DNA from: a bacterium
GTDB taxonomy: Bacteria > SAR324 > NAC60-12
Length of the DNA stretch: 64,000 nt
Direction of reading: 5' to 3'
Assembly: GCA_965205865.1 (NCBI GenBank)
Contig: CBDBHR010000030.1
Span: forward strand, 64,001 to 128,000
Below, one piece after another: positions 1,499-62,834 of this stretch. Below the pieces are notes generated by a model, which saw only the letters and a list, made by a program, of their open reading frames with translations, was not told the origin of the DNA and did not search any database. Numbering within the stretch: position 1 is the first letter of the stretch; the number at the start of each line of letters is the position of its first letter. The translations under genes and the position numbers were made by a program.

Positions 1499-1738
1499 GT
1501 GGGGTCAGGCTTGCATACTTGCGCATTGGTATTTTTTTCGTTTCATAGGTAAAGAGTCTCCCTCAGAACTCTCTCGGTTTTTATGTTTCTTCAGGAAGCC
1601 ATAGAGGTCTTTATCCTTCCGGTTTCCCATGCAGGACTCTCATGGTGGAGCCAATCAGAGTGCCTCCGTCCTTTTCCCGGAACCAGCGAGCCCAACTTCT
1701 TTTTCCATGCATTTACAAATATGCAAGCCTGACCCCAC
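1499..1738. repeat. Pair of GGGGTCAGGCTTGCA inverted repeats bracketing ~200 bp
   Basis: gtggggtcaggcttgcata ... tatgcaagcctgaccccac. Confidence 0.75.
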
Positions 1739-1740
1739 TC

Positions 1741-1950
1741 TCAGTTTGAAATCGACGCCATTTTTTGTGCTGCAAAACTTATGGCAATAGCAATTCCAAT
1801 ATTGCTGACAACCAATCCTACTCCCCATTGAAACATTTTGCCTTCCAGACGCACTATTTCCGTTTTAAGGTTCGCGATATCCTCTTTGGTTGCCATTTGT
1901 TCGATAATTGTTTCCAATCGGGTTATTCGGTTTTCAGATGTGGATTCCAT
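1741..1950 (-). CDS. Small coiled-coil protein with C-terminal TM helix (DUF1640/CCDC90-like)
   Basis: MATKEDIANLKTEI motif followed by hydrophobic WGVGLVVSNIGIAIAISFAA; GGAG upstream. Confidence 0.7.
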   Translation of the reverse strand: MESTSENRITRLETIIEQMATKEDIANLKTEIVRLEGKMFQWGVGLVVSNIGIAIAISFAAQKMASISN

Positions 1951-4261: not shown

Positions 4262-4945
4262 TCAGAATGAGTAGAACGCCCCTAGATGGGCGCGATGTTC
4301 GTCCCCACCGTGATCGTCACTGAGCGGCAGGTACAGGTACTCGATACGAAACGAAGCGGCGTTGGTTATCGGCACGTCGAGGCCGCCACCCAAGAGGAGC
4401 CCAAGGCCGTTGTCGTCATCATCGAATGGCACCGATACCAGGTTGTCCGCAATCGTTATCGTTCCCGTTCCCTCGAATTCATCATGCCATCGCCTCACCC
4501 CGATCTTGACGAAAGGCATGACGAAGGAGGAATCAAGCGACACTTGCCTTACGAGGGCGCCGTACAGTGACCAACGCCTCACCTTGACCTTGGCATCAAA
4601 GGATACCTCGTATTCGTCAAACGTTGCCGTCAGGTCCATACTCTGGTTCACCTCGCCACTGCCAAGATAACCAACCTCCAGCGCGAAGTCGTCATTCAAG
4701 TTGTACCCCGCAAAGGTGCTCCAGGCGAACGCCCGATCGTCAGTCGACAAGGACAAGTTGTTGATATTGTTATGCCCCTCTTGGCGTAGCTCATTCTCAA
4801 ATTTTCCGGTATGCTCTTCCAATTCCGGATACAACACCATCCCTGGAGCCGCACCCACATACATATCACCCACGCGATCCTGCGGATATGCCGAGGTCGC
4901 CATGAGTACTGCGCAGACCCCCGTCAACCATTTCAATATTTTCAT
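4262..4945 (-). CDS. Outer-membrane beta-barrel protein (OmpA-like transmembrane domain)
   Basis: Signal peptide, FAGYNLNDDFALEVGYL, C-terminal GAFYSF aromatic end; more GC-rich than its flanks. Confidence 0.85.
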   Translation of the reverse strand: MKILKWLTGVCAVLMATSAYPQDRVGDMYVGAAPGMVLYPELEEHTGKFENELRQEGHNNINNLSLSTDDRAFAWSTFAGYNLNDDFALEVGYLGSGEVNQSMDLTATFDEYEVSFDAKVKVRRWSLYGALVRQVSLDSSFVMPFVKIGVRRWHDEFEGTGTITIADNLVSVPFDDDDNGLGLLLGGGLDVPITNAASFRIEYLYLPLSDDHGGDEHRAHLGAFYSF

Positions 4946-5056
4946 GATTATCTCCTCTCAAATACTATTGAATTAAAAAGGGATTTCGTACCCCTGCCAT
5001 TGAGCGCATCGTAACTATTCAGATCTCTGAAAAACCCGTTTAGTCAAATAACGTTG

Positions 5057-5146
5057 AAAAAATTCCCAGGTAAAATTTTCACGTCCTCCCACGATATTGT
5101 TCAATCGAGCGGGAACCCTCTCCTTCACTGAAATAACTCAGTCAAG
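5057..5146 (-). ncRNA. Putative IS66-end structured RNA unit (copy)
   Basis: Homologous to the units at 20047-20412; TGcTATAAA upstream, stem cttgactga/tcagtgaag, gagggttcccgctcgattgaacaatatcgtgggagg, T-tract. Confidence 0.5.
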
Positions 5147-5259
5147 ACATGTTTATAGCACTTAAACAGAGGAATGAATAGAACTTGAAATGTTTGAATT
5201 GTTCCCGTACTTCAGAAGTTGATTCATCAAATGAAATTTCTGAGGAAAAAGGAATAAAA

Positions 5260-5526
5260 ATGGAAGCAGAAGTCGAATTTGATCCTATTGACAGGCTACT
5301 CAAAAAATTAACGGACCACGCTGTTGATCACAAATCAAAAATTGTTTCTATGAATAAGGAGATGACAAAAGAATTTGTCAGTGTGAAGAAGCAACTCACC
5401 CAATTGACTAATGTAAACAAGGAAATGGACGAGCGACTCAAAGAAATGGACGAGCGATTTCAAGGTCAATTTAGTGAAATGGGAAGTAAGATTGATGCGC
5501 TGGCAGACCTTTTGAGGAAGGAATGA
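5260..5526 (+). CDS. Hypothetical coiled-coil protein
   Basis: Heptad repeats KEMDERL KEMDERF; AAGGA upstream of ATG 5260. Confidence 0.6.
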   Translation: MEAEVEFDPIDRLLKKLTDHAVDHKSKIVSMNKEMTKEFVSVKKQLTQLTNVNKEMDERLKEMDERFQGQFSEMGSKIDALADLLRKE

Positions 5527-5713
5527 AACTTATGAGGAGAGGGGTATAGCTCCTGTGCGGGCGTTGTCATATTCCATGACTCTATGATGAAGAGAGCTCG
5601 CGCAGGGGTTTGTAACAATGAAAGGAGATATCCATGGAAAGAGGACCTGAAGGAGAGAAGCGAATCGAAGGGGTCTCTGAAGATACCCGAATAGTTACCA
5701 TAAACTCTCTTAA

Positions 5714-6699: not shown

Positions 6700-7704
6700 C
6701 TATTGAGGATCAGTGTGTTTATTTTGAAGCAAGACGCGTAAATGTTTGATCTCTTCCAGGGCTTGTTCCTTTTGTTGTCGCTCCTGTTCTTTTTGTTGTC
6801 GTTCCTGCTCTTCTCTTTTCAAGGCTTGTTCCTTTTGTTGTCGCTCCTGTTCTTTTTGTTGTCGTTCCTGCTCTTCTCTTTTCAAGGCTTGCTCTTTTTG
6901 TTGCCGCTCCTGTTCTTTTTGTTGTCGTTCCTGCTCTTCTCTTTTCAAGGCTTGCTCTTTTTGTTGCCGCTCCTGTTCTTTGAGTTGCCTTTCCTGCTCT
7001 TTTTGTTGCCGCTCTTCTTGGAGGGATTTTAAGAGATAGGGTTGGTAGAGCGGATCATTCATCAGGGTCTTGAAAGAGGTCTGGGCCTCCAGGTCTTGGC
7101 GCCGAAAAGCAAAATGCTCCAAGACGGTGGATTGAATCAGGCCCTCTTCTGCCGAATCCAATCGTTGATAGGTTCCCGCTTCATGGAGTCGATAAAAACA
7201 TGTATGTTTTCCCAAACGATCTAAAATATAATATTCTGCCACCCCCGCTTTGGCGTATTCTTCTTTTTTGAAGACGGTGTCCCGTTCCACCTCCGAGGGA
7301 GTCGAGTCGGATAAAAACTCTATACAGAGGTCACAGACCCCATGAAACGAACGATCCGTGGGGTGGGGCACTACCGGATTGGAATGCAGAAGGACCGCGA
7401 GATCCGGTTTCCGTACGCTGACTTTATCCCCCAAATCCAAACGAAAGCCCATGTCCAATGCCATGATTCGCCCGCGAGGGAAGACGGTTAAATATTCTTC
7501 TAATAAGCGCAAGAACCATTGATACAGAGAGATGCTCAAAAAATCCGGCATGGGCTTTTCCTCCAAGAGTCCATTGTTCCACTCATATTGACCATCCGGG
7601 TGTTGGTAATACTCCTTCCAATAGAGCTCCTCACTGATCCGATGGTGTTCTTGTAATGAGGGGCTCTGAGAGGAATCACTGATGATGGATTCGCGAGTTT
7701 CCAT
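6700..7704 (-). CDS. Uma2 family (DUF820) PD-(D/E)XK endonuclease-like protein with coiled-coil heptad tail
   Basis: RKPDLAV..DLCIEFLS..RDTVFKKEEYAKAGVAEYYILD; EQERQQK/EQALKRE repeats. Confidence 0.9.
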   Translation of the reverse strand: METRESIISDSSQSPSLQEHHRISEELYWKEYYQHPDGQYEWNNGLLEEKPMPDFLSISLYQWFLRLLEEYLTVFPRGRIMALDMGFRLDLGDKVSVRKPDLAVLLHSNPVVPHPTDRSFHGVCDLCIEFLSDSTPSEVERDTVFKKEEYAKAGVAEYYILDRLGKHTCFYRLHEAGTYQRLDSAEEGLIQSTVLEHFAFRRQDLEAQTSFKTLMNDPLYQPYLLKSLQEERQQKEQERQLKEQERQQKEQALKREEQERQQKEQERQQKEQALKREEQERQQKEQERQQKEQALKREEQERQQKEQERQQKEQALEEIKHLRVLLQNKHTDPQ

Positions 7705-8509: not shown

Positions 8510-10287
8510 ATGGATCATCAAAAAGCAAATCAACCTTCAGTACAATCCTGCTCACCCTCACCCTGATGGTGGCCGCCCTCGGGGTCAGTTCGGCAGCCGT
8601 TGCTGCCGAGAAAAAGATGGTCAAAGATCCGACCACTGATGAAATGGTGAGTGCATCAGAGTACGGCGGGACCTTGACTGTCCAACTGCAAGCGTGGGCG
8701 GGAGCAGTTGACCCCTATTTCGGCTATCCGAATACAGGCCCAACAGACGGCGTCGGAGAAAAGCTCGGTATCATGAACTGGGCAGTAGATTGAGACGTAT
8801 GGGACTTTAAGACGCTCTTCACCCCCGTCACATACATGAGAGGGAGGCTGGCAGAGAGCTGGGAAATCTCCCCGGACGGTCTCACCTATACCTTCCATAT
8901 CCGCCAGGGCGTTCGCTGGCATGATAAGGCGCCGATGAACGGGAGAGCCTTGACAGCGCAGGATGTCGAGTATAACTTTCACCGTATGCTAGGCTTGGGC
9001 AAGTTTGCCGAAGCCGGACCGACCCCCTTTGGCGGTGCTGACCCACTGAAGAACATCCCCTTCGAATCGATCACGGCCACCGACGATTCGACGGTGGTGA
9101 TGAAGCTGACCGAGCCACGCCTCGATTTTCTACGGGTGGTGCTCATGAACGAAGCTGCGACCATCATGCCCCCCGAGGTCATCGAGCAGCATGGCGACGT
9201 TCAGGACTGGAGGAACCTGGTCGGCACCGGACCCTTTATGCTGATTGACGTAGTCGAGGACAGCCAGATCACCTGGGCCAGGAATCCCGACTACTGGGGC
9301 TACGACGAGAAGTATCCCGAAAACCGCTTGCCCTACGTTGATGAGTTAAAGGCTCTGATCATTCCAGAGGAAGCATCAATCCTGGCAGCCCTACGCTCAG
9401 GCAAGATTGATTTCAGGACTTGGAGTAATTCGCTAGACTCGGCACAGAGCATCCGGAAGACAAACCCCGACATCGTGGTGCACGCGATCTGGTTTCGCTC
9501 CAGTGATTCTTTTGCTCCTGACCATCGCAAGCCACCCTTAAACGACATCAACGTGCGCCGCGCCATGCAGATGGCGCTCGACAACGAGACCATTGCCAAG
9601 ACGTACTGGAATGGCTTTGCAGACCCGACACCCTATGGGCTGATAGGGGTGGACGGGTACTACATCCCCTTCGAGCAGTGGGACGAAGAGGTCAAGCAAT
9701 GGTTCAGGTATAACCCGGAAGCTGCCGAGAAGCTGCTCGACGAGGCGGGATATCCGCGCGGTGCCGACGGTACGAGATTCAAGACCACCCTGAACTACGG
9801 GACTTGGGCAACCCTGGACTTTGCGGAAATAGCGGCCGCTTACTGGGCTGAGATTGGCGTCGAGGTCGAAATTGATGCTCTGACCTCAGCCGAATATCAC
9901 GAGAGGATGTGGGGGCGTACCGGAGAAGGCATGTACAGTGCCATTGCGGGCAACGAATTCGACCCTATCATGGCCGCAGGTTGGTATCACACGGATTCCC
10001 AGTGGAACCGCGGTGGGTCCCAGTGGCCTGAGCTGGACGCCATGGTTGACGCCGCCTTGGGCGCCCGTACGATTGAGGAGCAGCGGAGGCTGATTGCCGA
10101 GGCAGATAAGTACGCGATGTCGCGGCACTGGCTGATATATGGTCCCAGAAGTCCTATTTTCTATTACACCCAGCCATGGGTCGTCGGCTACAGCGGTGAA
10201 ATTCCATACTTGGCCACCGGCGAACAACAACTGGTTTTTGCCCGCCTGTGGATCGATAGCGCGCTGAAGAAAGAAATGGGGTATTAG
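8510..10287 (+). pseudogene. ABC transporter substrate-binding protein, family 5 (disrupted)
   Basis: GRLAESWE, GTGPF, DINVRRAMQMALD motifs; one A fewer in a homopolymer near the start than the 22332 paralog; in-frame TGA at 8791 where the paralog has CGA. Confidence 0.85.
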
Positions 10288-15779: not shown

Positions 15780-16700
15780 CTATTGAAGATCAGTGTGTTT
15801 ATTTTGAAGCAAGGCGCGTAAATGTTTGATCTCTTCCAGGGCTTGCTCTTTTTGTTGTCGTTCCAGTTCTTCTCTTTTCAAGGCCTGCTCTTTTTGTTGC
15901 CGCTCCTGTTCTTTTTGTTGTCGTTCCAGTTCTTCTCTTTTCAAGGCTTGCTCTTTTTGTTGCCGCTCCTGTTCTTTGAGTTGCCTTTCCTGCTCTTTTT
16001 GTTGCCGCTCTTCTTGGAGGGATTTTAAGAGATAGGGTTGGTAGAGCGGATCATTCATCAGGGTCTTGAAAGAGGTCTGGGCCTCCAGGTCTTGGCGCCG
16101 AAAAGCAAAATGCTCCAAGACGGTGGATTGAATCAGGCCCTCTTCTGCCGAATCCAATCGTTGATAGGTTCCCGCTTCATGGAGTCGATAAAAACATGTA
16201 TGTTTTCCCAAACGATCTAAAATATAATATTCTGCCACCCCCGCTTTGGCGTATTCTTCTTTTTTGAAGACGGTGTCCCGTTCCACCTCCGAGGGAGTCG
16301 AGTCGGATAAAAACTCAATACAGAGGTCACAGACCCCATGAAACGAACGATCCGTGGGGTGGGGCACTACCGGATTGGAATGCAGAAGGACCGCGAGATC
16401 CGGTTTCCGTACGCTGACTTTATCCCCCAAATCCAAACGAAAGCCCATTTCTAATGCCATGATTCGCCCGCGAGGGAAGACGGTTAAATATTCTTCTAAC
16501 AGTCGAAAAAACCACTGGTAGAGTGAGATACTTAAAAAATCCGGCATGGGCTTTTCCTCCAAGAATCCATTGTTCCACTCATACTGACCCTCCGGGTGTT
16601 GGTAATACTCCTTCCAATAGAGCTCCTCACTGATCCGATGGTGTTCTTGTAATGAGGGGCTCTGAGAGGAATCACTGATGATGGATTCGCGAGTTTCCAT
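15780..16700 (-). CDS. Uma2 family protein, second copy with shorter heptad tail
   Basis: Near-identical to 6700-7704 but 28 aa (4 heptads) shorter. Confidence 0.9.
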   Translation of the reverse strand: METRESIISDSSQSPSLQEHHRISEELYWKEYYQHPEGQYEWNNGFLEEKPMPDFLSISLYQWFFRLLEEYLTVFPRGRIMALEMGFRLDLGDKVSVRKPDLAVLLHSNPVVPHPTDRSFHGVCDLCIEFLSDSTPSEVERDTVFKKEEYAKAGVAEYYILDRLGKHTCFYRLHEAGTYQRLDSAEEGLIQSTVLEHFAFRRQDLEAQTSFKTLMNDPLYQPYLLKSLQEERQQKEQERQLKEQERQQKEQALKREELERQQKEQERQQKEQALKREELERQQKEQALEEIKHLRALLQNKHTDLQ

Positions 16701-16890
16701 GGAGCCTCCATAAGAATGATGGGGAAAAAATACTGATTATCAAACATAACATATCAGAGGGGAAACAGCAACTAGTGATAGAGGCGACAGCGATTACGAG
16801 TAAAAATTGCTGTAACTATTTAGGTTTCTTTAGAGCCCCCCTTCGATTTAAGCACGGAATTTGCATAGCATAAAATTCAGGAAGGATTTT

Positions 16891-18387
16891 ATGCTCTCGA
16901 AATTTCAAAAAAAATATATTAATTCCATTTCATCGACTTCCCTCCTTGAGGCTCTTCAAGAAGCCTGTCAACTCTTTGAAGAAGAACGGGACCAATGGAA
17001 AAAAGAGCGATTAAAACTCCTCGAACGTCTCGAAATAGAAAATAAGCGTATTGAAGCTCTCGAAACAGAAAATAAGCAACTTCGGGATCAGCTGGTTCTC
17101 AACAGCCAAAACTCAAGTAAACCTCCTTCCACCGATCAAAGTCGAAAGAACAAAAGCTTACGTAAAAGCAGGGGTCGCTCTCGCGGAGGTCAACCCGGTC
17201 ATAAAGGCCATCATTTGGCTTTCAGTGAATCACCAGATCATGTGGAGCCTCATTTTGTCAACACCTGTGAAACTTGTGGAGAAGATTTATCCAAGGTGGC
17301 GGTTGAGGCCAGGCATAAACGTCAGGTGTTCGATCTCCCCTCTCTGCAATTAGAGGTTACTGAACACCAGGTGGAACAAAAAATTTGTCCCTGCTGCCGG
17401 CATCTGAATCACTCGAGCTTTCCAGCAGGGATAGAGGCGCCCACTCAATATGGTCCCCGGATCAAAGGCTTAGCGGTTTATCTCAATCAATATCAGTTTC
17501 TGCCCTTTGATCGATGCCAGCAATTCTTTGAGGATCTGTTCGGCCAGCCGCTCAATGCGGCCACGATTTATGCTAGCCTCCGGCAAGCCGCCCATAGGCT
17601 TTATCCCTTCCAACAACAAGTGGCTGAAGCTCTGATTCAAGCGGAGGTGGTTCATTTTGATGAAACCTCTTTGTTTGAAAACAAACAACGTCGCTGGCTT
17701 CATTCAGCCTCTACCGAAGAGCTGACCTTTTATTTTATCCACGACAAACGGGGTCAAGCCGGAATGGATGCCGCCGGTATCCTGCCTCAGTTTGAAAAGA
17801 CAGCCATTCATGATCACTGGGAGAGCTACCAGCATTATGAGTGTGATCATGGCTTTTGCAATGCGCATCATTTACGTGAACTCACTCGGGCCTATCAACA
17901 AGAAAAGGCCTTGTGGGCTCAGGAGATGAGCGACTTACTGGTAGAGATCAAAGAGCAAGTAGACCAAGCCAAGTTCAAAGAACAATCTGCTTTGAGTCCA
18001 ATCCAACTCGATCACTTCCGGCAACGCTATCGTGATATCACCCAAGAAGCCCTTAAGCTCTATCCTCCCCCTCCTCAAACAAAGAAACGAGGACGCCCCA
18101 AACAGAGCAAAGCCAAAAATTTACTCGATCGCTTGATCCTCTATGAAAAGGAAAGCTTGTTATTCATGGATGACTTCCGGGTTCCTTTTGACAACAACCA
18201 AGCCGAGCGAGATGTGCGCATGGTTAAACTGAAACAAAAAATCTCCGGCGGCTTTCGAACGGCTGAAGGATCTCAGGCTTTTTGTATCATCCGGGGAGCC
18301 ATTTCCACTACCAGAAAACAGGGAAAATCCATCCTCGATTTGCTCACTCAGGCTTTGCATCCTTCACATGCTCCTCTTTGTTACTGA
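16891..18387 (+). CDS. tnpC: IS66 family transposase
   Basis: NSQNSSKPPSTD, GGQPGHKG, CxxC zinc motifs, [39 protein letters not shown]; no tnpA/tnpB. Confidence 0.95.
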   Translation: MLSKFQKKYINSISSTSLLEALQEACQLFEEERDQWKKERLKLLERLEIENKRIEALETENKQLRDQLVLNSQNSSKPPSTDQSRKNKSLRKSRGRSRGGQPGHKGHHLAFSESPDHVEPHFVNTCETCGEDLSKVAVEARHKRQVFDLPSLQLEVTEHQVEQKICPCCRHLNHSSFPAGIEAPTQYGPRIKGLAVYLNQYQFLPFDRCQQFFEDLFGQPLNAATIYASLRQAAHRLYPFQQQVAEALIQAEVVHFDETSLFENKQRRWLHSASTEELTFYFIHDKRGQAGMDAAGILPQFEKTAIHDHWESYQHYECDHGFCNAHHLRELTRAYQQEKALWAQEMSDLLVEIKEQVDQAKFKEQSALSPIQLDHFRQRYRDITQEALKLYPPPPQTKKRGRPKQSKAKNLLDRLILYEKESLLFMDDFRVPFDNNQAERDVRMVKLKQKISGGFRTAEGSQAFCIIRGAISTTRKQGKSILDLLTQALHPSHAPLCY

Positions 18388-18409
18388 AACTCTCCTTTTT
18401 TTTAAACGT

Positions 18410-18680
18410 TCCGCCCCCTGCGTGGCCAAAAGTATTCATAGCAAACATAGCATCGTCAATGCGATTTTGTATGTCCTGAAAACAAGTTGTCAGTGGAGCA
18501 TGCTTGCCCATGATTTACCTCCCTGGCAAAGCGTTTACGATCATTATCGCCGTTGGAAAAAACGCTGGATTGTGGAGCGAACATTCGCTTTTTGGTTCAT
18601 GCCGAAGATGGACCGCAATATATCTTTTTATAGCTGACCTCCATTGTTGCGCAATTCTCCTGATCCAAACTTGCTATAGG
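18410..18680 (+). pseudogene. IS5-family transposase remnant, internally deleted
   Basis: IVNAILYVLKTSCQWSMLAHDLPPWQSVYDHYRRW fused directly to KRWIVERTFA. Confidence 0.8.
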
Positions 18681-18713
18681 CTTTGCGCCGCGTAGTAGTG
18701 CTGAAATCATGCC

Positions 18714-18847
18714 TTGTTGTTTTAGGGAAGGAGAGGATTTCCGCTCGTTTGATTCAAAATTAGCTGTGGGAGGGTTCCCGCTTGATCGATTGAACAATAC
18801 CCCGGGAGGATGTGAAAACGATGGATCCTTCCCGGGAATCTTTTTTC
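18714..18847 (+). ncRNA. Putative IS66-end structured RNA, unit 1
   Basis: Two hairpin modules plus gatccttcccgggaatc-T tract; promoter partly lost; IS1595 inserted in the T-tract. Confidence 0.5.
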
Positions 18848-18849
18848 AA

Positions 18850-19903
18850 GGCTCTGTTTGTGATAAATATTGATAAATTTTTTGCATCTGTCATACTGTC
18901 TCCTGAACCGCTAAATTTTTTATAGGAGAAGGAGATGGATCATACAGAATTCAAACAATATCTTTCACGTCTTGAGGGGTTGAGTCCGGCACAAAAAAGG
19001 AAGCTGTCCGATGTTTTGCGAGTCAAGGATGAAGGCGAGGCAGTCGCAGAGACACTTGAGAAGCGCATCAGCGGTGGCGGGCACTGTCCTCATTGCAAGC
19101 ATGTTCAATTTCAAAGGTGGGGAATATCAAATGGGATGCAACGCTACCGTTGTAAAAGCTGCCTGAAGACCTTCAACGCAGCCACTGGGACTCCCTTGGC
19201 GCGCCTGCGGAAAAAGGAGAAGTGGCTGGAGTATTCCAAGGCGATGATTGACGGCCTGAGTGTCCGCAAGGCGGCCAGAAAATGCGGGATCGACAACACC
19301 ACCAGTTTCCGGTGGCGTCACCGTTTCCTGCATGGGTTGAGGGACAAGAAGGACAGCAGCCTCAAGGGGATAGTCGAGGCCGACGAGACCTTCTTCCTGG
19401 AGTCGTTCAAAGGTTCGCGGAACCTGGGGCGCACAGCTCGCAAAAGAGGCGGCAAAGCCACGAAGCGGGGGTTGTCTGCGGAGCAAATCCCGGTTCTGAT
19501 CGTAAGGGACCGCCACAGAGAGATGACAGACGAAGTGCTGAAAGACCTCAGCGAAGTCTCGATCACCAAAGTGCTCAAGCCTGTCTTGGCACAGGATGCG
19601 GTCCTTTGCACGGACGGGAACAAATCTTATTGGGCATTCGCGGACACTGAGAACATCGCGCATGTCCGGCTGATCGCCTCCAATGAGAGCAGGGTCATTA
19701 ACAAGGTCTATCACATTCAAAATGTCAACGCATATGACAGCCGTTTAAAAGGCTGGATGCGTCGATTCAATGGGGTTGCAACAAAATACCTCCCGAATTA
19801 CTTGGGATGGAGGCGATGCCTTGAAAAACAGGGAAATTCAATCGCACCGGTGACCTATCTCAACTGTGCTTTGGGGTGACCAATGCTAAACGCAAACAGA
19901 GCC
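18850..19903 (+). mobile_element. IS1595-family element nested in IS66
   Basis: TIRs ggctctgtttg / caaacagagcc; 8-bp TSD tttttcaa (18842-18849, 19904-19911). Confidence 0.9.
18935..19879 (+). CDS. IS1595 family transposase
   Basis: CPHC..RYRCKSC zinc ribbon, GIVEADETF, CTDG, HIQNVNAYDSRLKGW..GVATKYLPNYLGW. Confidence 0.95.
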   Translation: MDHTEFKQYLSRLEGLSPAQKRKLSDVLRVKDEGEAVAETLEKRISGGGHCPHCKHVQFQRWGISNGMQRYRCKSCLKTFNAATGTPLARLRKKEKWLEYSKAMIDGLSVRKAARKCGIDNTTSFRWRHRFLHGLRDKKDSSLKGIVEADETFFLESFKGSRNLGRTARKRGGKATKRGLSAEQIPVLIVRDRHREMTDEVLKDLSEVSITKVLKPVLAQDAVLCTDGNKSYWAFADTENIAHVRLIASNESRVINKVYHIQNVNAYDSRLKGWMRRFNGVATKYLPNYLGWRRCLEKQGNSIAPVTYLNCALG

Positions 19904-20012
19904 TTTTTCAATGTTATTGAACTGAACGGCTTCTGACTGTCCCCGGATTTGAGCAGATTTATTGATTTTTTATTTTTTTTTGCGAATCCCGCATTTATTT
20001 TATGTCAGGGGG

Positions 20013-20040
20013 TTGACATTGTGTTGTTTTGTGTTATAAT
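20013..20040 (+). promoter_or_regulatory. Consensus sigma70 promoter of RNA unit 2
   Basis: TTGACA-16 bp-TATAAT with TG extended -10; repeated at 20282-20307 (14-bp spacer, TGtTATAAT). Confidence 0.75.
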
Positions 20041-20046
20041 CTTGCC

Positions 20047-20178
20047 ATTGCTGAGTTGCTTTGGTGAAAGAGGGTTCCCGATCGATTGAACAAAATCTTG
20101 GGAGGGTTCTCGCCCGTTCGATTCAAAATAGGTGCGGGAGGAAGTGAAGTGATGGATCCTCTTCGGGAATCTTTTTTT
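20047..20178 (+). ncRNA. Putative IS66-end structured RNA, unit 2
   Basis: Promoter, 5' stem, two hairpin modules, weak stem plus T7; no long ORF. Confidence 0.6.
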
Positions 20179-20313
20179 ACCGATATTGAACTAAACGGCT
20201 TCTGACTGTCCCAGGATTTGAGCAGATTTATTGTTTTTTTAAATTTTTTTGCGAATCCCGAATTAATTTTACGTCAGGGGGTTGACATTACTTTATTGTG
20301 TTATAATCACGTC

Positions 20314-20412
20314 TTCGTTAAGTTGTGTTTATGAAAGAAGAGGGTTTCCGATCGATTGAACAATATCGTGGGAGGACTTGAAAACGATCGATCCTCTCCG
20401 GGAATCTTTTTT
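20314..20412 (+). ncRNA. Putative IS66-end structured RNA, unit 3
   Basis: 269-bp period from unit 2; one hairpin module; ends ~45 bp before the element terminus. Confidence 0.6.
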
Positions 20413-20469
20413 AACGATATTTAATAAACGGGTTTTTCAGAGACCTAAATAGTTACAAATTGCTTAACA

Positions 20470-22165
20470 CCTAAATCCTGCAATTGAATATTTTGATTGA
20501 GTTTCCCCCCACTCTTTGAGAGGTTTTTTTAAAAAAAAGGATTTGAGAGTTGAATTTCCATCAGTCCTTGCTCATAAAGGTTTTTCCGCCCTCCATTAGA
20601 TCGTCATATTTTGTGATGATCTGATACCCGCTTTCGCGGGCACAAGATTCAAGACGTACTTCTCCCTGGATTTGGGAATTTACATCTCAGCAAAATGTAT
20701 CCACTGGAGTGAAACAAAGGATCTAGGTCTCTCCAACAGCGACCCATGCATCCCATTGAGCATTGTAAAGTGTTCTTTCCGGAACTCTCAGTTTTTGTTG
20801 ACGAGCGCCACTCGTCCATTTTCCTGCCATTCGGACAAGATAGGTGCGCATGGTGGCCGGTTCCCAACGGCGCAGTATTGCGTTACCACTACAAAGGGCC
20901 ATCCAGCGCAGCGTGTTGTAAGCGAGTATCGCGCATTGGAACAAGGCACTGTTGGCCCAAAAATCGTCGGTTTTAATCTGAGCCAGCGCAGTTTGATTTT
21001 TTGCTTCCTCAATCCATGTCTCAGCGACCGCCCTTTGGCCATACTCTTTGTGAGCCTGCCAGGGAGTGAGCGCGTCAGTGAGAACATAACAAAAATAATC
21101 GTACTCCTTCATCTCAAAGAGGGTGGCCATCCCTTTGAGTTCCTCCTCTTTCTCCCTGCGTACGGCCATGAATTTTCTTGACCTCCTCCAAGTTTCACAT
21201 TGGTGGGAAAACTCACACCCTTCCCAAGCGGGCTGCCCCTTCACTTTTTGCCATTTTTGGGTTTCCAACAACGAGACAAGCCCCTTGAGTTTGACCTTGA
21301 TCAGATAGCCATGGCCTCGTTCTTCGAGGAAATCCAGCAAATCCCCCACAAAAAAACCACTGTCTCCACGAAACAGAGTGCGAGTCCGATTTGGAAGGTG
21401 AGCGAGAAGTTGCCGCATGAATTCAACGACTCCATTGCTGGTATAGGCACTCCCATCACGAAGCCAACCCTGAAGAATCTCCTTTGTCTCTGTGCAAAAT
21501 GCCAGCAGAGGATGATACGAAGCTGCACCGCGTTTGTGGGGATTATATCCGACAGACACTCCTTGCTGCTTGCCGTAGGCCGTTTTCACAGTGGAGTCCA
21601 CGTCAATCACAAGACAGTGTAACACCCCAACGATGCTTGTCCCACTTCGAAGCGCCTTACGCCAGATACCGGCTCGAATCCGATGGTTCAAGCTCTCCAT
21701 CTCATTGATGTTTTTCTGTGTGAAAGTACGCAGTATCCGGCCGAATGTGGTTTCATCCGGAATCCTCAGCCAACCGGCCACACGACTCAAAACACGGTCG
21801 TTCCAAACTGTCACAATCGAACGAATCGAACGGGCGCCACCAACAATGCCGACCACCGACAAAATGACCATGTCCACCGCGTCATAAAGACCCGTGGCGC
21901 CACGCCGATGATCTACGGTCTGCTCTGTCTTTGAAACAATCCCTTCTTTGTGAAAAAATTTGACAACCGGAATCAAGCCTGCTTGCGCGGTCAGGTCTCT
22001 GCCTCCCTGGCTGATATGGATGTTTTTTGCTGTCGTTCTTGCCGATCTTGCGCTACCTTTGTTTTTCATGGTAATGGTGATCTCTTAAAATGTTGATTCT
22101 GGTGTTAACTATTTGAGTATATTACCATTTCCATGTTTGATTGTCATCTAATTGCAGGATTTAGG
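20470..22165 (-). mobile_element. IS1380-family element
   Basis: 16-bp TIRs cctaaatcctgcaatt / aattgcaggatttagg; 5-bp TSD taaca. Confidence 0.9.
20723..22069 (-). CDS. IS1380 family transposase
   Basis: LTAQAGL, IDVDST, GYNPHKRGAASYHPL, RGDSGF, YGQRAVAETWIEEAK. Confidence 0.95.
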   Translation of the reverse strand: MKNKGSARSARTTAKNIHISQGGRDLTAQAGLIPVVKFFHKEGIVSKTEQTVDHRRGATGLYDAVDMVILSVVGIVGGARSIRSIVTVWNDRVLSRVAGWLRIPDETTFGRILRTFTQKNINEMESLNHRIRAGIWRKALRSGTSIVGVLHCLVIDVDSTVKTAYGKQQGVSVGYNPHKRGAASYHPLLAFCTETKEILQGWLRDGSAYTSNGVVEFMRQLLAHLPNRTRTLFRGDSGFFVGDLLDFLEERGHGYLIKVKLKGLVSLLETQKWQKVKGQPAWEGCEFSHQCETWRRSRKFMAVRREKEEELKGMATLFEMKEYDYFCYVLTDALTPWQAHKEYGQRAVAETWIEEAKNQTALAQIKTDDFWANSALFQCAILAYNTLRWMALCSGNAILRRWEPATMRTYLVRMAGKWTSGARQQKLRVPERTLYNAQWDAWVAVGET

Positions 22166-22331
22166 TAACATAAATTTGTAATATTCATGGTGAATATTGC
22201 TTTTTTAACTCCTTATATTAAAGGTCAAAATGAAACGAATCATCAGAAGCATCGTCGAGAACGTGTTTTCGATAACGAAAGCAGTTTTTAAATCAATCCT
22301 TAATTTTGAACATGCAATCGAAAGGAAAAAG

Positions 22332-24104
22332 ATGGAAAATCAAAAAAGCAAATCAACCTTCAGGGCAATTCTGTTGGCCTTCATCATGGGGGTGGCAGTT
22401 TTCTTGGGCAGCCCGGTCTGGGCAGCCGAAATGGTCAAAGATCCGGCCACCGGAGAGATGGTGACGGCGCCGAATTATGGGGGGAAATTAACCTACCCCT
22501 TGGCTACGGATCCTCTGAATATTGACCCCTATGCCTGGGTATATGCGGGAATGGTCGTCGGTCCCGTTAATGAGAAGCTAGGCATCGCGGACTGGGCAGT
22601 ACCCAGGGACGAATTCGACTTTAGAAGCCTTTACATCCCTGATCATTTGCTAAAAGGTAGGCTGGCTGAAAGCTGGGAAACGCCCGACCCCACAACGATC
22701 ATCTTCCATATCCGCCAGGGCGTTCACTGGCACGATAAGGCACCAATGAATGGGAGAGAATTAACGGCCAAGGACATAGAATATACCTTTCACCGTCTAT
22801 TGGGCCTGGGCAGCGGCTTCACCGAGAAGTTCCCCCAATGGAGCGATTTGTGGGAGCCTATAGAATCCGTAGAGGCTACCGATAATTGGACGGTTGTTTT
22901 TAAGCTGAATCGGGTATCCCTCACTATGCTGAAGATTATCCTCTCCAAAGAGCATGCTGCCATTGTAGCCCCCGAGGTAATCAAGGAACACGGCAACGCT
23001 GAGGATTGGAGGAACGTGGTCGGCACCGGTCCCTATGAGCTGACTGACCATGTCCCGGGCAGCTCTTGGAGCTACACCAAGAATCCTGACTACTGGGGCA
23101 CCGACGAAAAATACCCGGAGAACCGCTTGCCCTATGTTGACGAGCTAAAGATGCTGTTTATGCTGGAACCGGCAACACGTCTGGCGGCATTGCGCTCGGC
23201 TAAGGTTGATATGCTAAGTAACGTCAGCTACTCTTCAATAACCTCTATCGACCAGGTAGAGAGCCTGCAGAGGACCAACCCCGAAATCGTGCTGTACCCG
23301 TGGTCAATGCGGGCCCAAACGGCTCTTCATGCTGACGTGCAGAGGAAGCCCTGGAGCGACATCAGGGTGCGTATCGCATTACAGATGGCAATCGACCGTG
23401 AGACACTTAACGCGACCTACTTTAAGGGTTGGGCAGACACCAGACCTGAGGGGAGTAACGGGAGAGCCTTTGTCGGGTATAGCAACCCATATGAAACGTG
23501 GCCCGAAGAGCTTAAGGAAGAATTTGCCTATAACCCGCAAAGGGCCGAGGAGCTCCTTGATGAGGCCGGATATCCTCGCGGCGCGGACGGTATTTGATTC
23601 AAGACGACTTATCAACACTTGGATTTCTACGATTTAGACTATTATCAATTGGTCATGTCATACTTGCGTGAGATTGGCATTGAGACAGAGATTACGGTAC
23701 ATGACAATCCTTCTCATATGGCTCTTTGGCGAGAGCATACTTATGAAGGTCTGATTAATGGTAATACCGGCCAGGAGTGGTTCCCTCCCGAGCAGCCGAA
23801 ATGGTTTTACTCGACCTATTGGAACAATAAATCGAATGCCCAGGACCCGGTTTATGACGCCATGGTTGACGCCTTTCTTGCCGCTACCACCATTGAGGAG
23901 CAGAAGAGGTACTTTAGAGAGGCCGATATGTACGTAATAAAGAATCACTGGGTGATAGCTGGTCCCAGACCTCCAATGTTTAATGCGGTCCAGCCGTGGG
24001 TCATAGGTTATAACGGCGAAAACGACCTTGGCACTACTGAGGGACCTGTCATCTTCTCCCGCCTCTGGATTGATAGTGAGCTGAAGAAAGAAATGGGGCA
24101 TTAG
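22332..24104 (+). pseudogene. Family-5 ABC substrate-binding protein with one in-frame TGA (23595-23597)
   Basis: ORFs 22230-23597 and 23619-24104 are in the same frame; TGA aligns with Arg of GTRFKTT in paralogs. Confidence 0.85.
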
Positions 24105-26306: not shown

Positions 26307-26498
26307 AGTCCCGGAGGGACGAAAGATCATAGCCCAGCCATTGATGGCTGGGGACTGATTTTGATGCTGGATCCAGTCCCGGAGGGACGACACTTAAAGC
26401 GCACTGAAGAAAAAGTGTCGTCCCTCCGGGACTAAAAAACTTTTGTGGCCTATCCCAGCCATCAATGGCTGGGCTATGCCCTGTCACCCCTCCGGGGT
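26307..26498. repeat. gtcccggagggac / cccagccattgatggctggg palindromic REP cluster
   Basis: Inverted arrangement of two hairpin types; same family as 58760-59320 and 48737-48815. Confidence 0.8.
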
Positions 26499-26668
26499 TT
26501 TCTCACCTTCCCCTGTGTGAGATCGAACCGGATCCCTCGGGGGGACCCAATAAATATCCTTTGAGACGTTCACAATAATAAGCCACCGGCTTTACCGGTG
26601 GTCACTTTAACTGATGAATAAACTGCCATGCGCAACTTCAGCACTCCCCGGATTCTCAAGGAGACACT

Positions 26669-40286: not shown

Positions 40287-40693
40287 TATATACACCATTC
40301 TCTCACAAATTTTAACTGAATAAGTAAATATTGAGTATCAATTTTACCATTTCAGGTAAAAAAATCAAGCTATTTTAGAATATTTGATATAGAAGCTTTG
40401 ATCAAGAACGTGTCGCCAAGCGAGAATGAGCAGATGTAGCAATACGGCTATGATGGCGCGTTTACTACCCACACGACTAAGCAAAGATTTATTTTTTTTT
40501 GAAAATTTAGTCTTATCAGGAGAAGCCTATGGTGAAATCACGTCAGCAGAAAATACATTTTTATTCCTTCAACTTAAATAACAAGAAAGGCAAAATTATG
40601 GAGATGACCCAAAATAATAGAAGCCATGATAGGGGGACGAAATCACTTTCGAAATCCCTGTTTAATTCAATCGTATTTGGAAAGGAAATTATC

Positions 40694-42475
40694 ATGAAAA
40701 AGATGAATAATCATAAAAGCAAATCAACCTTCAGTGCAATCCTGCTGTCCCTCATCCTGATGGTGGCTGCCCTCGGGGTGGGTTTGGCCATTGCGGCTGA
40801 GAAAAAGATGGTCAAAGACCCCACAACCGGCGAGATGGTGAGTGCGCCGGAATACGGCGGGACATTGACCTTTCAACAGGGGGGTTTAATCTAAATTGTG
40901 ACCCCTATTTCGGCTATCCAGGCCCAACCGACGGCGTCGGAGAGAAGCTCGGTATCGTGAACTGGGGAGTAGATCGAGACGTATGGGACCTGAAAACGCT
41001 CTTCACGCCCCCCACATACATGAAAGGGAGGCTTGGCGGAGAGCTGGGAAATCTCCCCGGACGGTCTCACCTATACCTTCCACATCCGCAAGGGCGTTCG
41101 CTGGCATGATAAAGCGCCGATGAACGGCCGTCCATTGGCTGCAAAGGATGTCGAGTATAACTTTCACCGTATATTAGGTTGGGGAAAGTTCATAGACGCC
41201 GGACCGACCGCCTTTGGTGGTGCTGACCCACTCAACGTCATCCCCTTCGAATCGATCACGGCCACCGACGATTCGACGGTTGTGATGAAGCTGACGGAGC
41301 CACGCCTCGACGCGCCGCGGGTTTTGCTCCTCGACCAATTTACGACCATAATGCCCCCCGAGGTGATCGAGCAACATGGCGACGTAAAGGATTGGAGGAA
41401 CCTGGTTAGCACCGGGCCCTTTATGCTGACGGACGTGGTCGAGGGGAGCAGCATAACCTATACCAAGAATCCCGACTACTGGGGCTATGACGAAAAGTAC
41501 CCCGAGAAACGCTTGCCCTACGTTGACGAGTTAAGGGGAACGGTTATTACAGAAGACGCCTCAATTCTGGCGGCACTACGCTCAGGCAAGATTGATTTCA
41601 GAACGTGGAGTACTTCTGTAGACTCGGCAGAAAGCATGCGGAAGACAAACCCCGAGATCGCGGTGCACACGATATGGTTTCGGTCCAGTGATTCTTTTGC
41701 TCCTGACCATCGCAGGCCGCCCTTCAACGACATCAACGTGCGCCGCGCCATGCAGATGGCGCTGGACAACGAGAACATCGCGGCGACTTACTGGAAGGGT
41801 TTTGCAGACCCGACACCTGCGGGGATGGTAGGGGTGGACGGGTACTACATCCCCTTCGAGCAGTGGGACGAAGAGGTCAATCAATACTACCTGTATGATC
41901 CGGAAGCTACCGAGGAGCTTCTGGATAAGGCTGGCTATCCGCGCGGCGCCGACGGCACGAGATTCAAGACCACCCTGAACTACGGGTCTTGGGCAACCTT
42001 GGACTTTGCATAAATTGCTGCCGCCTATTGGTCTGAGATTGGCGTCGAGGTCGAGATTGATGCACTGACCTGTGCCGAATATCACGAGAGGCTATTCGGG
42101 CGTACCGGGGAAGGCATGTACAGTGCCATTTCGGGCAAAAAATTCGATCCTATCATGGTGGTAGGTTGGTATCACTCGGATTCACAGTGGAACCGCGGCG
42201 GATCCCAGTGGCCTGAGTTGGACGCCATGGTCTGAGCCGCCCTGAGCGCTCGTACGCCCGAGGAGGCGCAGGGGCTGATTGCCGAGACAGACGAGTACGC
42301 GATATCGCGGCACTGGCTGATATGGGGTCCCATGTCCCCAATATTCTACTACGCCCAGCCGTGGGTTGTCGGCTACAACGGTGAACTCGACAACGGCTTA
42401 GGGTGGGGGAAAGATGCAACACTGTTCGCCCGCCTCTGGATCGATAGTGCGCTGAAGAAAGAAATGGGGCACTAG
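40694..42475 (+). pseudogene. Family-5 ABC substrate-binding protein (multiple lesions), paralog of 8510-10287
   Basis: Frameshifts near 40890 and 41033; stops at 42011 and 42233. Confidence 0.88.
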
Positions 42476-49573: not shown

Positions 49574-49717
49574 GTAACTATTTAGGTGCGAGTTTCCTGG
49601 GTTTGCGGGTATTTTCCTTGGAAAAAGCGCAAAAAATCATTCACTTTTAAGGTATTTTGACGCAATTTAGAGGTTCTGTCGCCCTCTAGCCCAGTGTTTT
49701 AGCACCTAAATAGTTAC
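49574..49717. mobile_element. 144-bp IS66-type MITE
   Basis: 16-bp perfect TIR gtaactatttaggtgc; 8-bp TSD ctctttgt. Confidence 0.9.
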
Positions 49718-49789: not shown

Positions 49790-50095
49790 CTCAAAACTCA
49801 AAATTGAATATCCCCCTGCTTGGTATCATGTGATGAATCGGGGCAGACCAGGAAACGGGGTCATTCAGGCTTTGATTCAATCCCCGCTCATTTATTTTGA
49901 TGAAACCTCCCTCTTTGAAAACAAACAACGTCATTGGCTTCACTCGGCCTCGAGCAAAAAATTTACTCGATCGTTTGATCCTCTATGAAAAGGAAAGCTT
50001 GTTGTTCATGCATGACTTTCAAGTTCCTTTTGACAACAACCAAGCCGAGAGAGATATCCGCATGGTCAAATTGAAACAGAAAATCTCCGGCGGCA
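49790..50095 (+). pseudogene. RAYT N-terminal stub fused to deleted IS66 transposase pieces
   Basis: KIEYPPAWYHVMNRGR, then [20 protein letters not shown] and [30 protein letters not shown]. Confidence 0.8.
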
Positions 50096-50400
50096 TGTTT
50101 ACGACGAGCTTGCTCATTCGTGGCGAAGTCTGAAACTAACTGATCCCGTTACGGTGGTGGATAAAACGGGGGTCAGGCGCATAACGTGGTTGGGGACGGA
50201 ACATCAGGAAGGTTAAGCGAGATAAGCAGGGAGACCTCTGCCTTTGGTGAGAGGTAGAGGAGTCAAAACCCTGATAGTACCGTAATGGAGTTGTGTTTGG
50301 CAAGAGGGTAAGGATATTGTGACGCCATCGGGAAACCAGATGGCCAACAGGGAAAACAAACACAAACCCAAGTTGACAAACAGGCTTCATGAAACGCGGA
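50092..50400 (+). mobile_element. Group II intron 5' RNA remnant (putative)
   Basis: gcgaagtctgaaactaactg, gcataacgtg, aagcagggagacctc, gaggagtca..gatagtacc resemble domain I-III motifs; followed by ATG AAA CGC and truncated. Confidence 0.5.
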
Positions 50401-58736: not shown

Positions 58737-58759
58737 GTTCTCGATTTTTCTATAACACA

Positions 58760-59320
58760 GTCCCGGAGGGACAAAAGGGAATAGCCCAGCAATTCATTGC
58801 TGGGAAAGGGAAACTCCCTCCTCCTCAGCTAGTCCCAGAGGGACGACACTTCTTCGATCTAGCGAGTTACTGCTAAATATAACGCTCATCATATTCGAAA
58901 TTATGCTTGCATGGAACATGAAACCTCATTGTTGTGTCGTCCCTCCGGGACTTTGAAGGAGACTGTCATTTGTTCCCAGCGATGAATCGCTGGGAACTTC
59001 CTTTCGTCCCTCCGGGACTTCTGCTGACAAAGGAGACTGTCATTTGTTCCCAGCGATAAATCGCTGGGCTACTTCCTTTCGTCCCTCCGGGACTTCTGTT
59101 GACAAAGGAGACTGTCATTTATTCCCAGCGATGAATCGCTGGGTTACTTCCTTTCGTCCCTCCGGGACTTCTGCTGACAAAGGAGACTGTCATTTATTCC
59201 CAGCGATGAATCGCTGGGCTACTTCCTTTCGTCCCTCCGGGACTTCTGCTGACAATGGAGACTGTCATTTGTTCCCAGCGATGAATCGCTGGGCTACTTC
59301 CTTTCGTCTCTCCGGGACTT
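58760..59320. repeat. REP cluster with a 75-bp tandem array of triple hairpins
   Basis: cgtccc starts at 59005, 59080, 59155, 59230 and 59305 (last one cgtctc), plus a shorter unit at 58938; inverted partner at 58760-58850. Confidence 0.92.
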
Positions 59321-60324: not shown

Positions 60325-60425
60325 GGGACGGATCTCATCATTTTTAAAATTAGCAGGGAAACGCGGGGTATCCTGGAGTGGACCGGGCATTACTGCCCGG
60401 TCCACAAGTGCTTCCAGTCGGCCTG

Positions 60426-62270: not shown

Positions 62271-62490
62271 AGAAACCTCTTTCAATTGAGGGTGAAGAGA
62301 ATGATTCACCCGCCCTGGGGCGAATCGGATCCCCGCTCCCCGCTTTCGCGGGGACAAGTTTGCGAGGACAAGTTTTTGTACAGCAGACACGACGTCTGCC
62401 ACGATCAGCCCCACTAAAGAGGTGAGACATAACGAAAACGATGTTTTCTGTTTCATAATATTACTCCATCATTTCAGATTAAAAATTTTG

Positions 62491-62834
62491 GTAACTATTC
62501 AGGTCTCTGAAAAACCCGTTTAGTTCAATATCGGTGAAAAAAGATTCCCGGGGAGGATCGATCGTTTTCAATTCCTCTCACGATATTGTTCAATCGATCG
62601 AGCGGGAACCCCCTCTTTCACCAAAACAACTTAGCGAAAGCATGATTCTAGCACTACTACTACGCAATGTCTACCCCCGGCTGTAAAATAAATGCGGGAT
62701 TCGCAAAAAAAAATCAATAAATCTGCTCAAATCCGGGGACAGTCAGAAGCCGTTCAGTTCAATAACGTTGAAAAAAGATTCCCGGGAAGGATCCATTACT
62801 TCACTTCCTCCCGCACCTATTTTGAATCGAGCGG
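62491..62834 (-). mobile_element. Isolated IS66 right-end fragment with 1.5 RNA units
   Basis: TIR gtaactattcaggtctctg; inverted homolog of 20110-20456; TAGACA-17-TAGAAT promoter at 62673-62645. Confidence 0.8.

Follow-up and report, generated by a model that had tools for sequence, protein, structure and literature searches.

We report an IS66-family insertion sequence (IS) from a bacterium of the SAR324 lineage that carries, between its transposase gene tnpC and its right end, an array of three related units, each combining a promoter-like sequence with a predicted structured RNA read in the direction of tnpC. The element lies at 16812-20456 of the window, by which is meant the whole 64,000-nt stretch analysed here (assembly GCA_965205865.1, contig CBDBHR010000030.1, positions 64,001 to 128,000 of the forward strand). 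It is very probably a 3,645-bp IS of the ISBst12 type whose lineage gained a promoter-RNA cassette between tnpC and the right inverted repeat (IR), the cassette having been duplicated in tandem in this copy. The unit is a candidate for a new, lineage-restricted RNA family, or cassette, of an IS66 element. As to its role, we tentatively favour a portable outward promoter-leader or small RNA (sRNA) module.

The IS66 element and its array

An inverted-repeat search placed terminal inverted repeat (TIR) arms at 16811-16838 and 20430-20457 (28 nt, 82% complementary), and the 14-nt terminus GTAACTATTTAGGT is found exactly at 16812 on the plus strand and at 20456 on the minus strand. Together with an 8-bp target-site duplication (TSD) these bound one element, as had been proposed in an earlier note made from the sequence alone (hereafter the original prediction). 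The features are as follows.

16804-16811, no strand: left TSD copy AAATTGCT, identical to 20457-20464, read in the sequence
16812-20456, plus strand: IS66-family element, ISBst12-type, 3,645 bp, inverted repeats intact, target duplication of 8 bp
16812-16838, plus strand: left TIR of the IS66 element (GTAACTATTTAGGT...), from the repeat search and the exact terminus match
16891-18387, plus strand: tnpC, a single-ORF IS66-family DDE transposase gene; the open reading frame (ORF) is listed from TTG 16861, with a probable ATG start at 16891
18368-18690, plus strand: IS5-type remnant, internally deleted, the DUF4096 N-terminal part being fused to a C-terminal transposase motif
18704-18849, plus strand: unit 1, 51.7 bits, with a -10 only (TGcTGAAAT); its tail resumes at 19912
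18850-19903, plus strand: nested IS1595-family element, complete, 1,054 bp, transposase at 18935-19879
19912-20180, plus strand: spacer and unit 2, RNA about 20043-20177, two modules, 57.2 bits
20181-20412, plus strand: spacer and unit 3, RNA about 20310-20412, one module, 108.7 bits
20413-20456, plus strand: tail (partial module-like CGATATTTAATAAACGG) and right TIR, from sequence reading and the repeat search
20457-20464, no strand: right TSD copy AAATTGCT, read in the sequence

In Pfam, TnpC matches DDE_Tnp_IS66 (PF03050, 9.8e-47), zf-IS66 (PF13005, 1.9e-08) and DUF6444 (PF20042, 6.8e-11). Besides tnpC, only the IS5-type remnant and the IS1595 transposase are coding sequences within the TIRs, and no ORF there corresponds to tnpA or tnpB; the element is therefore a single-ORF, ISBst12-type member of the IS66 family. 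It shares with that group the one DDE_Tnp_IS66 transposase with its zf-IS66 domain, the lack of accessory genes, the TIRs and the 8-bp duplication, and its termini start with GTAAC, close to the GTAACTACTCAGCC of a relative on a Bacillus plasmid that also has an 8-bp flanking repeat. The cluster to which TnpC belongs, at 98% identity, has 127 members. After it come relatives with 88, 80 and 69% identity; in the rest of those listed identity does not exceed 57%, leaving aside some shorter, partial proteins (97% and 78%). Among plasmid-borne transposases, the closest reach no more than 49%.

The element differs from its relatives in length. Its 2,069 nt 3´ of tnpC are taken up by three RNA cassettes, the IS5-type remnant and the nested IS1595-family element. 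That relatives are normally compact, as the original prediction had it, is true of three of four plasmid-borne IS66 comparators, whose 3´ tails measure 1, about 8 and 129 nt; no TIR was detectable in the fourth. The covariance model of the unit found no match in any of the four.

The three units are homologous by alignment and are all matched by the covariance model (at 18742-18846, 20043-20177 and 20310-20412), and the repeat search gives the proposed 269-nt period between units 2 and 3. Each unit combines an extended -10 promoter with a predicted RNA of about 100-135 nt on the tnpC-sense strand. A sigma70-like promoter had been proposed for every unit, and the promoter scan supports this in part. 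Unit 2 scores 12/12, with TTGACA-16-TATAAT and a TG at 20013-20040; the scan also gave 12/12 with TG for two units on contig OZ242383.1 of a second genome (see below), and 10/12 with TG for the window copy at 62491 and for unit L003b. However, unit 3, in which TTGACA at 20282 and TGtTATAAT (-10 at 20302-20307) are separated by a 14-nt spacer by our reading, is absent from the scan list, and the copy at 5011 was not called. The promoter of unit 1 is degraded, as first described: unit 1 is homologous to the others only from about 15 nt upstream of its -10 onwards, where it meets the IS5-type remnant. The -35 is consequently missing, and in the alignment the right edge of the remnant stands in its place.

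The remnant follows directly after the tnpC stop codon, and its ORF (18368-18637) carries DUF4096 (5.4e-16). The original prediction treated units 1 to 3 as an array without an insert and overlooked a complete IS1595-family element between units 1 and 2, which are consequently not adjacent. This element encodes a transposase with DDE_Tnp_IS1595 (PF12762, 6.5e-12) and an N-terminal Zn_ribbon_IS1595 (PF12760, 1.8e-4, below the curated cut-off), and has its own IRs (25 nt, 80%, at 18848-18872 and 19881-19905) and a flanking 8-bp duplication, TTTTTCAA, at 18842-18849 and 19904-19911, all of which place it in the IS1595 family. Once it is removed, the end of unit 1 runs on at 19912 into a spacer of the type that joins units 2 and 3. 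Very probably, tandem duplication gave the three cassettes, the IS5-type remnant cut off the first promoter, and the IS1595-family element later landed between cassettes 1 and 2.

Predicted fold of the unit RNA

The consensus fold was derived with RNAalifold from eight single-module units, and single-sequence folds agree with it. It consists of a 5´ hairpin and a three-way junction closed by a long helix. The 5´ hairpin, P0, has 9-10 bp and a GUUGU loop; the loop region is G/U-rich (GUUGUGUUU / GUUGUUUU), and the G/U stretch is largely enclosed in the hairpin. P1, the closing helix of 12 bp, pairs AGAGGGUUCCCG with CGGGAAUCUUUU, and its 3´ strand enters the U-tract, a better description than the weak stem plus T-tract originally given for the unit end. 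P2 pairs CGAU with AUCG around the loop UGAACAAU, and a unit holds one, two or three such P2-like modules. P3 pairs GGGAGGA with UCCUCUCC. Unit 1 has, after its degraded promoter, a 5´ hairpin of reduced length, then two hairpin modules, P3, the P1 3´ strand and the U-tract. A complete cassette would then comprise an extended -10 sigma70-type promoter, an RNA of about 100-135 nt in the tnpC direction and a tail of about 20 nt, the RNA being predicted to fold into P0, followed by P1 around one to three hairpin modules and the GGGAGGA/UCCUCUCC hairpin P3. A 17-codon ORF (MDP[S/L]RESFF..ELNGF) with GGAGGA 9 nt upstream is present in multi-module units. We treat it as incidental because, by reading, single-module units have ATC in place of its ATG, a frameshift interrupts it in one relic copy, and it would extend across the U-tract.

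Covariation was counted in an alignment (A4) of 13 units with 36 pairs and 423 cells, and compared with 500 shuffles. Standard pairs fill 93.6% of the cells, compared to 47.3-63.1% when the partners are slid by 1-3 columns and 91.9±0.6% in the shuffles; no shuffle reaches the observed value, nor the covariation score of 0.181 (shuffles 0.155±0.009), and two reach the eight cells changed on both sides, results to be discounted to the extent that related sequences can exceed shuffles without any structure. Three of the four pairs with such changes are in P0 and the fourth is in inner P3, and P1 and the main P3 stem vary only through G-C/G-U/A-U switches. In P0, 89.5% of cells remain paired despite the changes, with U-A in place of C-G in three units; the earlier observation that the 5´ stem changes its sequence and retains its pairing is borne out by these counts and by the consensus fold. 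The pairing is strand-specific, with 102 G.U versus 4 A.C cells, and 93.6% pairing on the tnpC strand versus 70.4% on the opposite strand. Unit 2 has a minimum free energy (MFE) z-score of -3.34, and none of 200 shuffles folds as well; unit 3 has -1.63. Structure at the RNA level on the tnpC-sense strand is likely from this small and closely related sample, which lends modest support to the predicted fold overall.

The same data contain points against the role that we favour. The number of pairs with compensatory change, four, is equalled by 124 of the 500 shuffles; the MFE z-scores are mixed (-3.34, -3.09, -1.63, -1.51, -0.63, 0.01); and the sample is small, 13-15 units that come from two related genomes and are 77-96% identical. 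The count of compensated pairs and the close identity of the units fit an explanation in which the array has no function of its own. In this view a single IS66 lineage had its 3´ non-coding end multiplied, through slippage or unequal recombination, and the relics are now decaying. The fold and promoter-like boxes would then be inherited by descent within a narrow distribution (two genomes, and five real loci among 185,579 representative genomes with the pattern used). Several copies are indeed degraded (unit 1, 62761 and L017b), and the arrays themselves have been hit by other ISs. We consider this explanation distinctly unlikely. Neutral drift of a palindromic DNA would hardly produce the split of 102 G.U to 4 A.C, P0 keeps its pairing through change, relic copies retain 12/12 promoters, and the bias in neighbouring genes described below is specific to the right end.

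The ends of the units bear on a further alternative. A scan for intrinsic terminators called no unit end in the main element or in the other copies scanned. In place of a short G+C-rich hairpin followed by a T-run, the units have a U-tract of 4-7 preceded by the long-range helix P1, and the lack of a canonical call at the unit ends leaves room for read-through. The array could be element housekeeping, with P1 and the U-tract acting as terminator or insulator of tnpC and the CGAT(CG)ATTGAAC motifs of modules and tail acting as subterminal DNA-binding sites for TnpC. An A/G-rich stretch, stem and U-tract do lie downstream of tnpC on the same strand. By sequence reading, the tail repeats the start of the module (CCGATATTGAAC versus CCGATCGATTGAAC), and a related TTCGATTTAAGC occurs about 31-42 nt inside the left end. 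That left-end motif, however, is in direct and not inverted orientation, a terminator needs no promoter and yet five units carry promoters of 10-12/12 with TG, the scan calls no unit end, and G.U-dependent pairing points to RNA rather than to recognition of double-stranded DNA. Housekeeping of this kind is accordingly an improbable account.

Further copies and distribution of the unit

Two further sites in the window carry the unit, both on the minus strand.

5011-5149, minus strand: single unit and IS66-type right end, RNA 5055-5149, 79.4 bits
62491-62850, minus strand: right-end array without tnpC, with a full unit, a 5´-truncated unit and the right IR, 103.8 bits

The recurrence of the unit beside IS66-type ends at these sites had been noted from the sequence and was recovered here, along with a truncated copy at 62782-62834. 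The core motif occurs five times in the window, compared to 0.68 expected by chance. In the array at 62491 the full unit has its promoter at 62673-62645 and its RNA at 62537-62642 (minus strand), and the 5´-truncated unit spans about 62771-62850, the covariance model matching the 62782-62834 part. The unit at 5011 is the right part of a 688-bp stretch (5011-5698) that is bounded by IS66-type left and right ends and lacks a target duplication. On the opposite strand to the unit, this stretch has a 113-codon ORF (5185-5526) that is repetitive and rich in lysine and glutamate. A 144-bp miniature inverted-repeat transposable element (MITE) at 49574-49717 shares the 14-nt termini of the IS66 element and is flanked by the 8-bp duplication CTCTTTGT, but it contains no unit. 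Two fragments of a tnpC gene lie beside it, at 49860-50130; with 64-67% identity to the intact TnpC, they are the remains of a second, related IS66 element.

A total of 185,579 species-representative genomes were scanned by exact matching with a degenerate 33-38-nt module pattern, a procedure that misses divergent units. It returned 17 loci, with a chance expectation estimated at about 26. Five are real, all on contig OZ242383.1, and the other 12 have no further resemblance and no covariance model match. The covariance model (R1) gave 15 matches at E<=1 in 127,858 bases, six in the window, nine in the OZ242383.1 loci and none in the 12 chance loci. The arrays of the two genomes are 77-96% identical, and all eight of them end 40-45 nt before an IS66-type right terminus, in one case a deleted version, which agrees with the original claim that the units are tied to IS66-type ends. 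The junction of IS5 remnant and unit 1 seen in the window is also present in one OZ242383.1 locus (L017; 94.4% over 252 nt). It occupies another genomic site there, which shows that the composite form has been mobile. At another (L005, about 440-1930) the array is split by an IS of about 1.5 kb with terminal repeats TGGGTGTAATTAAAAGTGAGGGGCA and a flanking TTTTACA repeat. It encodes a UPF0236-type protein and landed in an A/T-rich array spacer, as did the IS1595 element of the window.

The unit matches no described RNA family, in agreement with what had been anticipated. Searches of Rfam 15 gave only Acido-Lenti-1, away from the units, at the gathering threshold across the whole window, three chance-level matches, none of them on a unit, at E<=10 on 18640-20460, and no match at E<=1 on the five OZ242383.1 loci. 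No DNA match to the unit was found by blastn in its distant mode in plasmid and phage collections. In the partial literature accessible, searches for IS66 in connection with non-coding RNA, and for TnpC or RNA-guided systems, gave only unrelated reports, and none described a structured RNA cassette that has its own promoter and is repeated in tandem at the 3´ end of an IS66-family element. A 2026 preprint on prokaryotic non-coding clusters has 0 occurrences of 'IS66' (10.64898/2026.10.21.760802). The Acido-Lenti-1 matches (RF01687) are seven in number, 46.5-56.3 bits, and lie at 26307-26499 and 58759-59319. Four of them (59049, 59124, 59199 and 59274) are 75 nt apart and the whole 75-nt tandem unit recurs, just past the 3´ end of a permease gene (59368-60405); the repeat has no variable spacers and is therefore not CRISPR-like.

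The original prediction named TnpC regulator, guide, protein decoy and antitoxin RNA as possible roles. Such a trans-acting sRNA, whether regulator, assembly cofactor, guide or decoy for TnpC, or an antitoxin-like addiction RNA, would account for the own promoter, the compact fold from the predicted transcript start and the U-tract end, for the strand-specific fold, for the constant linkage to IS66-type right ends, and for arrays in which the units are multiplied as if dosage mattered; the absence of the cassette from compact relatives would mark it as a lineage-specific addition. Complementarity of the unit RNA, however, does not exceed that of shuffled controls. Predicted duplexes with the tnpC 5´ region have energies of -39.2 for unit 3 (shuffles -35.3±5.3) and -35.4 for the 62491 unit (shuffles -38.5±4.5). 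The best match to the IRs and the element's own flanks is 8 nt, reached by 9 of 200 shuffles, and in 300 nt of downstream flank at seven terminal units none of 14 comparisons falls below 5% (best 12/200). The units have no hypervariable unpaired segment resembling a guide, the variation being in the compensated P0 stem, and no toxin-like ORF accompanies them. Four of the five OZ242383.1 arrays have no tnpC within about 1.75-1.9 kb upstream (at the fifth, L005, the view upstream is cut by the locus boundary and the IS that splits the array), and this persistence is hard to reconcile with an RNA that solely serves TnpC. We regard an sRNA for the transposon as rather unlikely. Of the original prediction, what stands is that the units are real, IS66-linked, promoter-like, foldable and unmatched in Rfam; each of the specific TnpC roles is left without support.

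In IS10, pOUT near the end of the element directs outward transcription of RNA-OUT, a small folded antisense RNA against the transposase mRNA, whose 5´ end it covers. The present unit is alike in being a predicted, stably folded small RNA from the element's own promoter near one end, directed outward. It differs in being located 3´ of tnpC on the sense strand, with complementarity no better than that of shuffles, and antisense control of tnpC was rejected on these grounds. The bridge or seek RNAs of IS110/IS1111 elements and the omega RNAs of IS200/IS605 TnpB and IscB, families which are in Rfam, are likewise structured non-coding RNAs beside a mobility gene within the element. Their partner enzymes are an IS110/IS1111 DEDD protein or TnpB/IscB, whereas the enzyme here is DDE_Tnp_IS66. 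The unit has no Rfam match at E<=10 or E<=1, the longest matches to ends and targets are within the range of shuffles (best 9/200 and 12/200) and do not point to a variable targeting segment, and the 8-bp duplications are without a common target sequence.

Genes facing the right ends and a possible role of the cassette

Nine right ends are available for a comparison of neighbouring genes, those of the eight arrays and one solo end without unit in locus L008. Two features border the right end of the main element.

20470-22165, minus strand: IS4-like insertion, transposase 20723-22069 (DDE_Tnp_1_4), IRs CCTAAATCCTGCAATTG, flanking direct repeat TAACA
22230-23597, plus strand: SBP_bac_5 gene (Opp/Dpp-type solute-binding protein, SBP), 1e-57, faced by the right end of the main element

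The IS4-like insertion starts 13 nt past the IS66 right end, which it splits from the SBP_bac_5 gene, and is the later of the two. Without it, by our reading, the start of the gene lies 72 nt from the IR, or 175 nt if the ATG at 22333 is used. At the other two sites of the window, an OmpA-like gene (4262-4945) lies 65 nt downstream of the 5011 end and an SBP_bac_5 gene (60426-62456) downstream of the 62491 end, both co-oriented with the unit. A co-oriented ORF starts 17-472 nt away from eight of the nine right ends, and from all nine once the IS4-like insertion is removed. The genes faced are six SBP_bac_5 genes, one OppB-like permease (followed by an OppC-like one), one OmpA-like gene and one PhyH gene. 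The eight genes on the other side encode a Uma2 protein, Bmp, a short-chain dehydrogenase/reductase (SDR) fragment, a 23S-IVP protein, an aldolase, an SDR, PhyH and DUF3226. Genes for Opp/Dpp-type ABC transporters are thus found at 7/9 right ends and 0/8 other sides (Fisher p = 0.0019). The SBP proteins are 26-57% identical to one another, compared to 77-96% for the units, and the junctions differ; the insertions are therefore separate and comparatively recent, and orthology or recent duplication behind the association was rejected on the divergence of the proteins.

Two other origins of the association were rejected. Site-specific targeting is not apparent, as the TSDs AAATTGCT and CTCTTTGT and the nine downstream junctions have no common motif; two pairs of flanks resemble each other, at different distances from the IR. 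Nor does the cassette appear to be a captured native SBP leader, as local alignment with three SBP upstream regions gave z-scores of -0.7 to 3.2, the sole signal being a 14-nt GAAAA.GATGGATC in one pair that was equalled by the best shuffle.

The window itself has four SBP_bac_5 genes with Opp-type permeases (8836-10287, 22230-23597, 41033-42013 and 60426-62456), three of which are almost the same in their leader and N-terminus. Interruption seems to have affected at least two of the four, with stops upstream of the 8836 and 41033 ORFs and an end of the 22230 ORF within the domain. From the sequence, this suggests a transporter family that has expanded and is partly decaying. The OmpA-like gene (start 4945, minus strand) and an SBP gene (start 40695) have a common leader, ...CGAAATCCCT(T/G)TTTAATTCAAT.GTATTTG..AGGA..ATCATG, at 4950-5000 and 40630-40694, which includes a terminator-like hairpin. 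An element of about 100 nt with CCCGCGAAAGCGGGGAGCGGGGATCCGATTCG lies between IS66 end and SBP gene both in the window (about 62320-62420, minus strand) and in L017 (about 1670-1770, minus strand). It is 89% identical over 99 nt between the two genomes, at different distances from the end, a related palindrome is found at 20620-20650, and it may be a repeat resembling repetitive extragenic palindromes. On the left, the IS66 end is bordered by one of two ORFs of the Uma2 family (putative restriction endonuclease; 6700-7704 and 15780-16700) with identical Pfam scores and matched residues (1.6e-17, 64.0 bits, residues 29-196), probably a recent duplicate pair.

From these features we infer transcription, partial termination, read-through and a conceivable host benefit, along the following lines. 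The cassette promoter would fire outwards; part of the transcription would stop at the non-canonical P1/U-tract and give a small RNA, and the remainder would continue past the right end into the gene next to it. In this way the element would plant a portable promoter with a structured leader before host operons, and selection on the effect on the neighbour would keep right-end cassettes after tnpC is lost. Such an effect would explain both why these cassettes outlive tnpC and why they sit before Opp/Dpp-type operons. ISAba1, ISEcp1, IS481 and others have outward-facing promoters that switch on neighbouring genes. The present element resembles them, with promoter matches of consensus-like sequence near one end and co-oriented genes shortly after eight of the nine ends. 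It differs in the conserved structured RNA of about 100 nt with its U-tract before the end, in the tandem repeats, and in that the genes faced are mostly of one class.

Several observations weigh against the promoter-leader or sRNA module that we prefer, in addition to the limits of the fold sample given above. In three cases (unit 1, unit 3 and the copy at 5011) the promoter falls short of the criteria of the scan. A structured RNA and U-tract between promoter and gene would hinder read-through, and at 5011 a terminator-like hairpin (4995-4979) stands between element end and gene. Five of the nine ends are in divergent intergenic regions, where a gene start is faced in either orientation, and orientation is therefore weak evidence on its own (binomial p 0.02-0.07 for 8/9). 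The genome is rich in SBP_bac_5 genes, four in 64 kb and several apparently disrupted; the binomial p for six of nine is 6e-4 at an assumed background of 0.15 and rises to 0.01 at 0.25. Insertions tolerated beside redundant operons could explain part of the enrichment.

The right-end-specific Opp/Dpp association and the conserved RNA-level fold also invite a bolder interpretation, in which the cassette is a mobile riboregulator, that is, a promoter with a conditional attenuator that senses a ligand or protein through formation or not of the P1/U-tract structure and is set before Opp/Dpp operons, or even, bolder still, an RNA that together with TnpC biases insertion there. No alternative antiterminator pairing and no guide-like complementarity was found in the units, and we consider this a long shot. 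The RNA could instead act in trans on host mRNAs. GcvB uses a G/U-rich region against oppA and dppA, and the units adjoin Opp/Dpp-type operons and have a G/U-rich P0 loop. Yet that stretch is largely enclosed in the P0 hairpin, and predicted P0 duplexes are no stronger with the start regions of the four SBP genes than with 29 other genes of the window (means -9.1/-11.8, -12.6/-15.9 and -14.8/-15.2 kcal/mol, SBP/other). An sRNA similar to GcvB directed at solute-binding-protein mRNAs is very improbable.

Insertion sequences are known to activate neighbouring genes through outward promoters, and a few encode small RNAs. Whatever its role, the unit adds a new candidate to the RNA families, for which a covariance model is available for use on transcriptomes and metagenomes. 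If the RNA were linked to TnpC after all, an IS66-type DDE transposase would for the first time have an RNA partner, and if the riboregulator interpretation were true, a whole paralogous transporter family would have been rewired. If, as we tentatively propose, the cassette drives or gates the neighbouring operons, it would be a case of a bacterial transposon that distributes a prefabricated regulatory module, consisting of a promoter and a leader RNA, over a gene family, and the relics would record its repeated co-option.

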